This document shows positions 3,082 through 36,320 of a stretch of 64,000 nt of DNA, piece by piece; the stretch's first letter is position 1; every line of letters starts with the position of its first letter. The translations under genes and the position numbers were made by a program. The DNA lies in contig JANMTV010000051.1 of NCBI GenBank assembly GCA_031390905.1, forward strand, positions 2,881 through 66,880, written 5' to 3'. Origin of the DNA: Ilumatobacteraceae bacterium. Its GTDB lineage: Bacteria > Actinomycetota > Acidimicrobiia > Acidimicrobiales > Ilumatobacteraceae. The notes below the pieces were generated by a model that was not told the DNA's origin, made no database searches, and worked only from the letters and a program-made list of their open reading frames with translations.

Positions 3082-5408
<2,327 letters not shown>

Positions 5409-5412
<4 letters not shown>

Positions 5413-5498
5413 GAGACTGACTTTCGGTGAGCGTCGAAGCGGAGCGGAGACGGCGAACTCGGCAGGCGAGTGCCAACGAGCCGATTGAGAACGGTCAT
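5409..5498 (-). CDS. Repeat-encoded mini-ORF 2 (29 aa, [29 protein letters not shown])
   Basis: TGA (5411-5409) overlaps ilvN ATG (5412-5410) as ATGA. Translation is inferred. Confidence 0.55.
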
Positions 5499-5584
5499 CA
5501 GACTGACTTTCGGTGGGCGGCGAAGCGGCGCGGAGACGGCGAACTCGGTAGGCGAGTGCCAACGAGCCGATTGATAGCGGTCAT
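5498..5584 (-). CDS. Repeat-encoded mini-ORF 1 (28 aa, [28 protein letters not shown])
   Basis: ATG (5584-5582) overlaps ilvB TGA as ATGA; its TGA overlaps mini-ORF 2 ATG as TGATG. Translation is inferred. Confidence 0.55.
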
Positions 5585-7332
5585 GACAAGTACTCCCTGT
5601 TGGTCTGCTGAGATGGGTGGACGAGGAGGTCGTCGTTCGACTGACCGGCTGGAACCATCGGGAACACCTTCTCGTCGGAATCGGTACGGAACTCGACGAC
5701 GACCGTGCGGTCATTGATCGAGTTGGCCTTCTCGATCGCTGGTTCGACTTCCTCCGGCGACTCGACACGGATACCGACGCAACCCATCGCCTCGGCCCAC
5801 TTGACGTAGTCGGGGCACTCGGTCGACAGATAGACCTCGCTGTAGCGCTCGCCGTAGAACATCTCCTGCCACTGGCGGACCATCCCGAGGTAGCTGTTGT
5901 TCAGGAGGGCGACCTTGATCGGAATCCGCTCGACGGACGCGGTCACCAGCTCCTGGGCGGTCATCTGAAAGCAGCCGTCACCATCGACAGCCCACACCGT
6001 GCGGTCAGGGCGACCCACCTTGGCACCGATCGCGGCAGGGATCGAGAACCCCATCGTGCCGAGACCACCGGAGTTGACCCAGGTGTATGGCTCGTTGAAC
6101 TTCCAATGCAACGACGACCACATCTGATGCTGGCCGACACCGCTCGTCAGGATCGTGCCCTCCGGTGCCGCATCCCGCAACTTCTCGAGGCAGTACTGCG
6201 GCTTGAGCGCCGCACCGGGTTCTGACATCTCGAACGTGGTTGGGAACATTTCCTGCCAGCCGGAGATTCGGCTCCTCCAGGGGCCGATATCGGCTTGAAC
6301 AGCGTCACCGGCGAGCAGGTCGCGGATGGCGATGATCAGTTCCTCGGTGACCAGACGGCAGTCGCCGACGATCGGGACGTCCGGCTTGCGGACCTTGCCC
6401 TGTTCGGCTGGGTCGATGTCGACGTGGATGATCTTGGCGTCGGGCGCGAATGAGTTAACGCGGCCTGTGATCCGGTCGTCGAAACGGGCGCCAAGGGCGA
6501 TCAGGAGGTCGCTCTTCTGCATCGCCGTGGTCGCAGCGGCGGTGCCGTGCATGCCCGGCATGCCGAGGCATTGCGGATGATCGTCCGGGAACACTCCACG
6601 CGCCATCAGCGTGGTGACAACGTGGATGCCGGTTAGCTCAGCCAACTCACGGAGTGACTCTGCGGCGCGGGCCTTCAGCATCCCGCCACCGGCGTAGAGG
6701 ATCGGCCGCTCGGCTGCAAGGATCAGCCGGGCGGCTTCCTTGATCATGCGCGGGTGACCCTTGGTCGTCGGCCGGTAGCCCGGCAGCGAGGCGGCGACCT
6801 CGTCATCGGATGGCCAATACCAGGTCATCTCGTTCTGCAGGACATCCTTCGGGATGTCGACCAGAGTCGGGCCAGGGCGCCCGGTCGTGGCGATGTGGAA
6901 TGCCTGGCGAATCGCCATTGGCACGTCTTCGGCGCTCATCACGAGGTCATTGTGTTTGGTACACGAACGAGTGATCCCGACGGTATCGCATTCTTGGAAA
7001 GCGTCGGTCCCGATCGCAGACGTGGGGACCTGGCCGGTGATCGCCACCATCGGAATCGAATCCATGTAGGCGTCCATCAGCGGCGTGACCATGTTCGTCG
7101 CCGCAGGGCCCGAAGTCACCATCGCCACGCCGGGGCGCCCGGTCACGTGCGCATAGCCCTCGGCCATATGGCCAGCACCCTGCTCGTGACGCACCAGGAT
7201 GTGACGGATCGACGACTCCAGCAACGGGTCGTAGGCCGGGAGGATGCACCCGCCAGGGAGGCCGAACATGACGTCGACCTTTTCCTGTTCGAGTGATTTG
7301 ATCAGGGCTTGCGCCCCAGTCATTCTGGTCAT
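5581..7332 (-). CDS. ilvB: Acetolactate synthase large subunit
   Basis: [52 protein letters not shown]. Confidence 0.97.
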
Positions 7333-7390
7333 TGCGAACTCCGTCGTTCTGGGAGGTATTGCAGCTGTTGCAAGAGGGTGATTTGGGCCG

Positions 7391-7420
7391 AAAAACGAAA
7401 CAACCTCCCGGCTGGGAGGT
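7391..7420 (-). terminator. Intrinsic terminator of the ilvB attenuator
   Basis: Minus strand ACCTCCC-AGCC-GGGAGGT followed by TGTTTCGTTTTT, ~60 bp before ilvB. Confidence 0.85.
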
Positions 7421-7452
7421 CATGGTGCACACGCGGCTATGTCGCCGGTGTG

Positions 7453-7494
7453 CTACCGGATAAGTACTACGAGAGTGTTGGACTCGGCACGCAT
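7453..7494 (-). promoter_or_regulatory. ilvB operon leader peptide MRAESNTLVVLIR
   Basis: ATG CGT GCC GAG TCC AAC ACT CTC GTA GTA CTT ATC CGG TAG: five consecutive Leu/Val/Ile codons just upstream of a terminator. Confidence 0.85.
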
Positions 7495-7555
7495 CGCCGA
7501 CAAGTGTGCCAGAACTCGCGCCAGAACACAAGCGTTCAGTCAATAAGGTGCGGAG

Positions 7556-8248
7556 ATGCGCGTCGAGGAAATTTGGCGGTATCCGGTCAAGTCGCTTGGC
7601 GGCGAACGGCTCACGTCTGCTGACGTCGACCGGTTCGGAATCACCGGCGATCGGGGATGGGCGATCTTCGACATACAAACTGGCCTGGCGCTCACGGGGC
7701 GCCGCCAGCCGGAACTACTGATGGCGAGCGCTCGCTACGCGGAAGGTCGACCCACAATCTCGCTCGCCGACGGGACCGAACTGGTCAATGACGATGACCT
7801 ATCGGCTTGGCTCGGCCACCCGGTCGAACTGCGCTCGGCTGCCGAGACAACAGCAACGTTCGAGAACCCGATCAACGTCGAGGACGAATCGGACTGGGTG
7901 CACTGGAACAGCGCCGACGGCACTTTTCACGACGGCGGGTCGAAGATCTCGCTCGTCTCGCATGACTCGCTTGGAGTGCATGACGGTCGCCGATTCCGAA
8001 TCAACCTGATCCTCGACGGAGTCGGGGAGGACGACCTCGTTGGCGCGGTTCAAGTCGGTACTGCCGTACTCACGATTCGCCAACCGATCGAACGTTGCAT
8101 CATGGTCACGCGAGCCCAACCCGGGTTGCCACGTGATCTCGACGTGCTCAAACAGGTCATCCGTGAACGCAACAATTTGATGGGTGTCGGCGCAGTTATC
8201 GCGGTCGACGGGACGATCTCGACTGGTGATTTTGTCACGACAATGTGA
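7556..8248 (+). CDS. MOSC domain protein
   Basis: IWRYPVKSLGGE, GDRGWA, RRFRINLIL, ERCIMVTRAQ. Confidence 0.85.
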   Translation: MRVEEIWRYPVKSLGGERLTSADVDRFGITGDRGWAIFDIQTGLALTGRRQPELLMASARYAEGRPTISLADGTELVNDDDLSAWLGHPVELRSAAETTATFENPINVEDESDWVHWNSADGTFHDGGSKISLVSHDSLGVHDGRRFRINLILDGVGEDDLVGAVQVGTAVLTIRQPIERCIMVTRAQPGLPRDLDVLKQVIRERNNLMGVGAVIAVDGTISTGDFVTTM

Positions 8249-31419: not shown

Positions 31420-31452
31420 TGTTATGCCTGGTGTCTGACACCATGTGTAACA
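31420..31452. repeat. GGTGTCTGACAC-core palindrome, copy 1
   Basis: TGTTA...TGGTGTC-T-GACACCA...TAACA. Confidence 0.85.
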
Positions 31453-31475
31453 ACCGCTGGCCTATCGTTTCGTGA

Positions 31476-31763: not shown

Positions 31764-31800
31764 TTGTTACACGTGGTGTCTGACACGACCTGTAACAATC
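31762..31800. repeat. GGTGTCTGACAC-core palindrome, copy 2
   Basis: GATTGTTACA...GTGTC-T-GACAC...TGTAACAATC. Confidence 0.85.
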
Positions 31801-36268: not shown

Positions 36269-36301
36269 TGTTACCGATGGTGTCTGACACCATCGGTGAC
36301 A
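36269..36301. repeat. GGTGTCTGACAC-core palindrome, copy 3
   Basis: TGTTACCGATGGTGTC-T-GACACCATCGGTGACA (15/16 arm match). Confidence 0.9.
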
Positions 36302-36320
36302 CTGGCAGACAGGAGACACT

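Follow-up and report, generated by a model that had tools for sequence, protein, structure and literature searches.

The window analysed here is a 64,000-nt stretch of an Ilumatobacteraceae bacterium genome (GCA_031390905.1, contig JANMTV010000051.1, positions 2,881 to 66,880), which carries on its minus strand the genes ilvB, ilvN and ilvC. The whole gap between ilvB and ilvN is filled by two tandem repeat units of 86 nt, each of which opens a small open reading frame (ORF) that overlaps its neighbours on both sides. These units and their mini-ORFs are the subject of this report. In the order of transcription, the features of the locus are as follows.

5581-7332, minus strand: ilvB, large (catalytic) acetohydroxyacid synthase subunit (ORF list; Pfam TPP_enzyme_N/M/C, E 1e-41 to 1e-53)
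5593-5597, minus strand: Shine-Dalgarno-like GGGAG within the 3' end of ilvB and 8 nt ahead of the 5584 ATG; putative ribosome-binding site
5499-5584, minus strand: repeat unit 1, 86 nt (family hidden Markov model, HMM, E 6.8e-10)
5498-5584, minus strand: mini-ORF1, 28 codons plus TGA (ORF list, sequence)
5507-5511, minus strand: second copy of GAAAG, upstream of the mini-ORF2 ATG
5413-5498, minus strand: repeat unit 2, 86 nt (family HMM, E 4.5e-13)
5409-5498, minus strand: mini-ORF2, 29 codons plus TGA (ORF list, sequence)
5421-5425, minus strand: Shine-Dalgarno-like GAAAG, 8 nt upstream of the ilvN ATG; putative function
4837-5412, minus strand: ilvN, small (regulatory) acetohydroxyacid synthase subunit, 191 aa (Pfam ACT_AHAS_ss and ALS_ss_C)
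3801-4835, minus strand: ilvC, ketol-acid reductoisomerase (Pfam KARI_N/KARI_C; gene calls on L211/L214)

An earlier note, made from the letters of this DNA, had described the gap as two 86-bp units whose ORFs are chained without a free nucleotide, and a reading of the minus strand agrees. Tandem Repeats Finder reported, for 5406-5584, a period of 86 with 2.1 copies, 92% matches and a score of 309, by far the strongest array of the window, and the two units are identical at 79 of 86 positions. The ilvB 3' end reads ...TTG TCA TGA, and its stop codon (5581-5583) overlaps the ATG of mini-ORF1 (5584-5582) as ATGA. The TGA of mini-ORF1 (5500-5498) shares one base with the ATG of mini-ORF2 (TGATG, 5496-5500), and the TGA of mini-ORF2 (5411-5409) sits inside the ATGA that opens ilvN (5412-5409), the ilvN ATG lying at 5412-5410. 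The successive overlaps along ilvB, mini-ORF1, mini-ORF2 and ilvN are -4, -1 and -4 nt, with zero free bases between them; a single nucleotide separates the ilvN stop from the ilvC start. A Shine-Dalgarno-like motif also precedes each start codon: GGGAG precedes mini-ORF1 in the window and precedes ilvN itself in the empty site of a sister genome (L179, see below), and GAAAG(G) from the 3' end of a unit sits 7-8 nt before the next start codon, GAAAGG being found in units of other genomes. The 3' tail of actinobacterial 16S rRNA, CCUUUC, could pair with a motif of the GAAAG type.

We compared the ilvB-ilvN junctions of 35 genomes in the genus and added contigs found by exact look-up of the IlvN protein. 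In the sister genome (G311, L179; IlvN 98% identical) the site is empty, reading TTGTCATGACCGCGATCAATCCGCACGG, seen as ...GAGTATTTGTCATGACCGCGATCAATCCGCACGG, and the TGA of ilvB overlaps the ATG of ilvN. One 86-nt unit is present in G236 (IlvN 99%), where two independent contigs of the lineage agree, and in G281 (IlvN 97%); G414 (IlvN 85%) has one unit of 77 nt, and the remaining genomes of the genus have short spacers or unrelated small inserts. A second metagenome-assembled genome (MAG), 99.8% identical, carries the same two-unit array, and a JGI metagenome contig, 95.4% identical, has two diverged units with the joins ATGA, TAATG and TGATG. A Logan contig, 99.5% identical, has a single unit made of the left of unit 1 and the right of unit 2; it bears the unit-1-specific C8 together with the unit-2-specific C86, and it therefore records a 2-to-1 deletion by recombination between units. 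Scans of metagenome contigs for the unit junction, and for the conserved box described below plus its tail, returned no match. The earlier note had proposed looking for copy-number variation and for preservation of the stop/start overlaps: the junction holds 0, 1 or 2 units among close relatives, and the overlaps are present in every junction allele found. The genus has two types of ilvB C-terminus (compared at window 5581-5600), one ending ...NRE[YL]L[SKT], where ilvB overlaps ilvN as ATGA/GTGA, and another ending ...IRDRL[AV], followed by a spacer of 10-25 nt, and G281 (L180) has the second type despite its 97% identical IlvN, which suggests recombination in the region.

Comparison of the empty and filled sites divides each unit into an element of about 70 nt and, at its head, a 16-nt copy of the ilvN start that matches the original at 13-15 of 16 bases.

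5569-5584, minus strand: duplicated ilvN start opening unit 1, ATGACCGCTATCAATC (compared with the empty site L179 and the native start)
5483-5498, minus strand: duplicated ilvN start opening unit 2, ATGACCGTTCTCAATC (same comparison)
5397-5412, minus strand: native ilvN start, ATGACCGCGATCAATC, with the same sequence as the empty site L179

It is because each unit carries this duplicated start that both units and ilvN open with ATGACCG and that the peptide start MTAIN recurs; the suggestion of the earlier note that the units look as if inserted at the start codon fits both the empty site and the 16-nt copy. IlvN itself begins MTAINPHG, and MTAINP.GSS is kept at its N-terminus across the genus, repeat-free genomes included. 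The 16-nt copy looks like a target-site duplication. Across the repeat family to which the units belong (see below), flanking direct repeats scoring at least 12 (about 12-22 nt) accompany 7.3% of copies vs 0.7% of permuted left/right pairs; direct repeats of this kind range from 9 to 22 nt in length, and the majority of copies have none. Several of them span a gene end together with its GTGA/ATGA overlap, as at L081 (GGGGTCGAGTGATG) and L052 (GGTGTGCTGTGAGC). At L052 (G064) and L041 (G051), which come from different genera, the element follows a gene ending ...KGVL*, at a junction taken as hisB-hisH, and the direct repeats of 14 and 22 nt include this gene end; the mini-ORF at L052 passes the downstream start in another frame and makes no clean relay.

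The inserts at the junction all have lengths of the form 3n+2, namely 86, 86, 86 and 77 nt, plus 92 nt in G418, where the insert belongs to an unrelated repeat family and also duplicates ATGACTGC.AT. All junction mini-ORFs end on the ilvN start or within one base of it. A length of 3n+2 combined with an ATGA at the boundary explains why a mini-ORF stops on the next ATGA or one base earlier, and it also leaves the last base of the unit free to vary without breaking the chain, so that variation at this base is uninformative. The uniform lengths are consistent with selection for translational coupling.

As the units open with the ilvN start and have no other copy in their own genome, they might be thought a tandem duplication of the 5' region of ilvN that is private to this locus, an artefact of assembly or a pair of functional micropeptide genes, all of which we regard as extremely improbable. 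The longest exact stretch common to units 1 and 2 is 25 nt, and no exact repeat of at least 31 nt exists between them, so collapse in a 31-mer assembly is unlikely; because two further independent assemblies carry two units, making three in agreement, the two-unit array is no assembly artefact. A private duplication is contradicted by the core of the units, which is common to hundreds of copies in other genomes.

5435-5462, plus strand: family core in unit 2, CGAAGCGGAGCGGAGACGGCGAACTCGG, an exact pattern match that includes the box CTCCGCTNCGCTTCG (ilv-sense reading)
5521-5548, plus strand: family core in unit 1, differing from the 28-nt pattern at one position

Within the source genome, a 404-contig MAG, no other copy was found by BLAST, by nhmmer with the two units or with the family HMM, which was built from 129 family copies and there matches both ilv units alone. 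By BLAST, the unit core was matched in 40 of 401 Ilumatobacteraceae genomes, from 17 of 61 genera, some of the matches lying in arrays of period 100-108. The core pattern CGAAGCGNAGCGGAGNNGGCGARCNCGG occurs in at least 119 stretches of the species-genome collection, and among the matches listed for it all come from MAGs labelled Ilumatobacteraceae or otherwise Acidimicrobiia, bar one 'Actinomycetes bacterium'; roughly 360 Acidimicrobiia genomes sampled outside Ilumatobacteraceae gave zero core matches. Counted per genome, with up to 3 mismatches allowed and a reversed-pattern control of about 0, core matches number 244 in G153, 218 in the complete genome G031, 55-60 in each of four other genomes, 37 in G418 of the same genus, 2 in the source genome (G000), 1 each in G236 and G281, and 0 in four same-genus genomes, three of them single-contig. 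On these searches, the repeat family is confined to part of Ilumatobacteraceae, with 0 to about 244 copies per genome. The earlier note had likened the units to an interspersed family such as the interspersed repetitive units of mycobacteria (MIRUs), and interspersion at tens of loci (37-244 core matches) is seen in some other Ilumatobacteraceae, the source genome having one locus only. A literature search found the core sequence in no paper, and searches for Ilumatobacter repeats returned nothing relevant.

Nor do the mini-ORFs resemble genes. Two of the three sense frames run open through the units, and an open frame is accordingly unremarkable. GC contents at codon positions 1/2/3 are 0.59/0.66/0.66 in the units vs 0.67/0.39/0.73 in ilvN, so that the codon-position pattern of a real gene is lacking; units 1 and 2 differ by 4 non-synonymous and 2 synonymous changes; a Pfam search with the peptides gave no match, and the element in the opposite orientation yields different peptides. 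Functional micropeptides were rejected on composition, substitution pattern and orientation, and we propose that the mini-ORF peptides would be by-products. Annotators should leave the mini-ORFs out of the list of protein genes and keep 5412 as the start of ilvN. The array folds poorly on the sense strand (weaker than 199 of 200 shuffles, z = +1.92) and no better than shuffles on the antisense strand (z = +0.78). A scan for sigma-70-like promoters or terminators within the units found none, and an Rfam search over 4500-8000 gave no meaningful match. A sense strand this poorly folded, with neither promoter- nor terminator-like sites in the units, would leave the ilv mRNA easy to read through.

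Based on these results, we suggest that the array is probably a tandem pair of a small, non-autonomous, MIRU-like repeat, which was inserted at the ilvN start, was later duplicated, and has been tolerated since translational coupling to ilvN was kept. In the ancestor, ilvB and ilvN would have been coupled by an ATGA overlap, a state still seen in the sister genome. A family element of roughly 70 nt would then have landed just inside the ilvN start and duplicated 16 nt of its target (ATGACCGCGATCAATC), such that the upstream duplicate still overlapped ilvB as ATGA, kept the former ribosome-binding site and now opened a mini-ORF through the element. Element and duplication together make 86 nt (3n+2), and the mini-ORF would end at the next ATGA or TGATG, on the intact ilvN start. 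The whole 86-nt unit would have been duplicated later, and recombination between units would gain or lose copies, giving rise to the alleles with 0, 1 and 2 units. We infer that the mini-ORFs are translated by re-initiation: ribosomes finishing ilvB may re-initiate at mini-ORF1, then at mini-ORF2 and then at ilvN, and such a relay is plausible. The insertion would persist mainly by doing little harm to IlvN synthesis.

Several observations weigh against this proposal. The frame argument rests on about three independent lengths (p about 0.04), and the overlaps follow largely automatically from duplication of an ATGA combined with a length of 3n+2, which makes them weak evidence of design. Most family copies in relatives are not relays: they occur in both orientations, often between convergent genes, and a clean chain was found in 9 of 55 co-directional cases, a noisy figure given the rough gene caller. 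As to mobilisation, a Y1 transposase of the repetitive extragenic palindrome (REP)-associated RAYT type (PF01797) is absent from G031, G153, G345, G192, G300 and G013, which hold 55-244 copies; reverse transcriptase (PF00078) shows no correlation with copy number; and no terminal inverted repeats were found, the complementarity of the ends (0.50 for the family consensus, 0.43 for the own unit) falling within that of shuffles. Within the units, positions 41-72, the box region, show 0/32 differences between G236 and G281 vs 14/54 elsewhere (Fisher p = 0.0015) at about 45% divergence of 4-fold sites, and such constraint hints at a sequence-specific role beyond that of a tolerated insert. Finally, among the mismatches in the stems of the family's hairpins, A:C outnumbers G:T when the ilv-sense strand is read (66 vs 40), an excess that speaks weakly for a structure formed by the other, G-rich strand.

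The contexts behind these counts were obtained with a crude GC-frame gene caller on 152 non-redundant arrays, which placed 45 arrays in sense and 28 in antisense between co-directional genes, 38 between convergent genes and 18 between divergent genes. In the high-copy genome G031, the left end of the element (T[G/C]ATG-TTCG...) lies mostly 0-10 nt past a stop codon. Array periods of 3n+1 occurred in 1 of 8 co-directional and 3 of 6 other arrays, numbers too small for significance, and a scan of the 5901 ORF ends in the source genome returned 104 loose chains, of which many are spurious. Relay layouts do occur at other loci of the family, some with the element reversed: at L080, upstream of an etfB-like gene; at L081; at L031, where two 78-nt units form one ORF; and at L051, with four 107-nt units. 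The further operon-internal copies that the earlier note had proposed to look for are present at some loci of relatives; the source genome has none, and most of the relatives' copies are not relays. The predominance of contexts without a chain indicates that the relay belongs to the copies in tight operon junctions and not to the family as a whole.

The conservation of the box raises the question of whether the units act primarily as a DNA or RNA element in cis. The box hairpin, with its TCCGCTNCGCTTC loop and 4-bp stem, could be a binding or processing site for a factor of the host or of the element, or the units could hold an internal promoter, the mini-ORFs being merely the price of a location within an operon; we consider this unlikely. 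In an alignment of 197 family units, two small hairpins are apparent, and the better supported is a 4-bp stem closing the invariant 13-nt loop. The box is the best-conserved part of the family, and stem pair 65:81 covaries through three Watson-Crick pair types (C:G 130, T:A 34, G:C 20). Conservation at the ilv junction extends to the comparison of G236 with G414 (box region 4/32 vs 16/45 in the rest of the unit, p = 0.03). A second repeat family of the source genome, GGTCGGGACTGGCCTCCGCTTCGCTTCGGCTGCTCCCTCC..., of which 14 copies have the exact box, shares with the ilv units the 15-nt box CTCCGCTNCGCTTCG and the geometry of a 4-bp stem and a 13-nt loop. There is also a precedent among MIRUs, those of the senX3-regX3 spacer having been reported to drive regX3 expression (PMC4213456). 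Set against this are the negative promoter, terminator and Rfam searches and the folding of the local array, in which neither strand exceeds shuffles. Unit 1, moreover, departs from the other ilv-junction units at positions 56, 65 and 69, in or beside the box, and has lost the 65:81 pair without visible consequence. The conservation of the box could be due either to selection acting at the junction or to independent insertions that stem from a conserved source copy.

A broader possibility, which we find doubtful but mention for its implications, is that Ilumatobacteraceae harbour a superfamily of junction-homing repeats defined by a hairpin with the loop TCCGCTNCGCTTC and a covarying 4-bp stem. 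It is suggested by the hairpin's apparent retention under selection even in solitary copies and by the occurrence of the hairpin in at least two otherwise different families of the source genome. Were it true, a factor recognising the box, probably on the G-rich strand, would be expected, along with mobilisation by neither a RAYT nor a reverse transcriptase that makes duplications of 12-22 bp at stop/start overlaps.

Further junction repeats were noted in the source genome, outside the window, and at the ilv locus of relatives. Copies of the GGTCGGGACTGGCCTCCGCTTCGCTTCGGCTGCTCCCTCC family lie at C11, C35, C111, C152, C202, C205 (a tandem run with a 74-nt period), C235 and C275; it has relay layouts at C111, C152, C211, C213 and C138, several of the mini-ORFs showing -4 overlaps at both ends. 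A third family, ATGACCGTTCA.TGCGTTCC...GACCAGTGA, and a fourth, GGGGCTGCGCCCCCGGACCCCATCG..GGCTCGCTGGCGCTCG, likewise show relay layouts; their sites are C69, C77 and C128, and C221, C404 and C384, respectively, with two ~90-nt units of the fourth at C384. This fourth family resembles the insert in the ilvB-ilvN junction of G418 (L193). Spacers between ilvB and ilvN in other species of the genus (L181, G220; L184, G186; L183, G406) contain the perfect palindromes GAGTTGTGCCAGGCACAACTC and GCGTTACAGAAGGTGTCAGACACCTTCTGTAACGC, and the latter resembles the GGTGTCTGACACC palindromes of the window (31420-31453, 31765-31798 and 36269-36302); both G220 and G186 have Y1 transposase genes. Small elements seem to have a hot spot at the ilvB-ilvN junction.

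The location of the units between the two subunits of one enzyme invites a more purposeful interpretation, the one put forward in the earlier note, in which each termination/re-initiation step would pass on fewer ribosomes, and unit number would be selected to set the IlvB:IlvN ratio. The junction itself, the presence of 0, 1 or 2 units among close relatives, the recombinant one-unit allele in a 99.5% identical strain and the retention of the overlaps in every allele would all suit such an adaptive tuner, which we nevertheless hold to be quite improbable. Units of G000 and G236 differ by 5.8-8.1%, which is near neutral (about 8.7% at 4-fold sites); the same family also occupies numerous unrelated junctions and the 3' ends of genes; and the ilvB-ilvN junction is without a unit in most of the genus. 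The operon also has a candidate regulator of its own upstream of ilvB. A candidate leader peptide, MRAESNTLVVLIR, with five consecutive Leu/Val/Ile codons, lies at 7453-7494 on the minus strand and is followed by a terminator-like hairpin at 7400-7423 with a T-run tail to about 7390. From its layout, this region (7390-7494) looks like a classical-type attenuator of ilvBNC, separate from the repeat units, which, when examined as an ilv leader or attenuator themselves, had neither a run of branched-chain codons nor a terminator.

The tolerated, coupling-preserving insertion that we favour adds evidence that the MIRU strategy, by which a small repeat survives within an operon through a mini-ORF that passes ribosomes to the next gene, extends beyond mycobacteria. 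The natural series of alleles with 0, 1 and 2 units and a recombinant, placed between two subunits of one enzyme, offers a test of the cost of each termination/re-initiation step, and the arrays could be of use in telling apart strains of uncultured Ilumatobacteraceae.

Among the closest known systems are the MIRUs (Supply et al. 1997; summaries in PMC12548453 and PMC3184786). They are described as seemingly mobile repeats that insert at start codons, with a MIRU ORF coupled to the gene at -4 nt (PMC12548453, a 2025 review), and as units of 40-100 bp, present in 40-50 copies per genome, with empty and filled sites, tetranucleotide direct repeats at the filled sites and ORFs that overlap the neighbouring genes (PMC3184786, Delihas 2011). 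The ilv unit, at 86 nt, falls inside this size range and shares the head-to-tail array with strain-variable copy number (0, 1 and 2 units plus a recombinant), the position within an operon, the small ORF that overlaps an upstream stop and a downstream start at -4 nt, the existence of an empty site (G311) beside filled ones bounded by direct repeats, and the interspersed copies in family-carrying genomes. It differs in its host, Ilumatobacteraceae (Acidimicrobiia) and not Mycobacterium; in a flanking repeat of 16 nt at ilv (about 12-22 nt in the family) instead of a tetranucleotide; in the occurrence of the family in both orientations, frequently at the 3' ends of genes or where two genes converge; and in a copy number of 0 to about 244 per genome, with a single locus in the source genome. 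Judged by published descriptions, we class the ilv units as MIRU-like by their proposed mode of action and not as MIRUs.

Other small repeats can also be compared. REPs and their BIME and REPIN-RAYT relatives are likewise short, GC-rich, high-copy and extragenic and often lie past stop codons or between convergent genes (PMC2817692, PMC3184786), and the small hairpin with a covarying stem is a further likeness. Unlike REPs and REPINs, the ilv unit is no palindrome and folds no better than shuffles (z +1.92, +0.78), and family genomes with 55-244 copies are without a Y1 transposase; coupled mini-ORFs are not part of REP descriptions. With miniature inverted-repeat transposable elements (MITEs) the family has in common that it comprises small non-autonomous repeats that survive only where gene expression is unbroken; long direct repeats resembling target duplications flank a minority of its copies, and the ilv element is without terminal inverted repeats. 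Rickettsia palindromic elements are MITE-type repeats that insert in frame. The ilv insert, in contrast to such in-frame MITEs, would be tolerated via stop/start coupling between genes and not by being read within a gene. In its suggested action it resembles engineered bicistronic design cassettes, in which a short, throw-away leader ORF ends on the downstream start and terminating ribosomes initiate there (cited in PMC12548453), whereas the ilv units, with their putative function, are natural, repeated and mobile.

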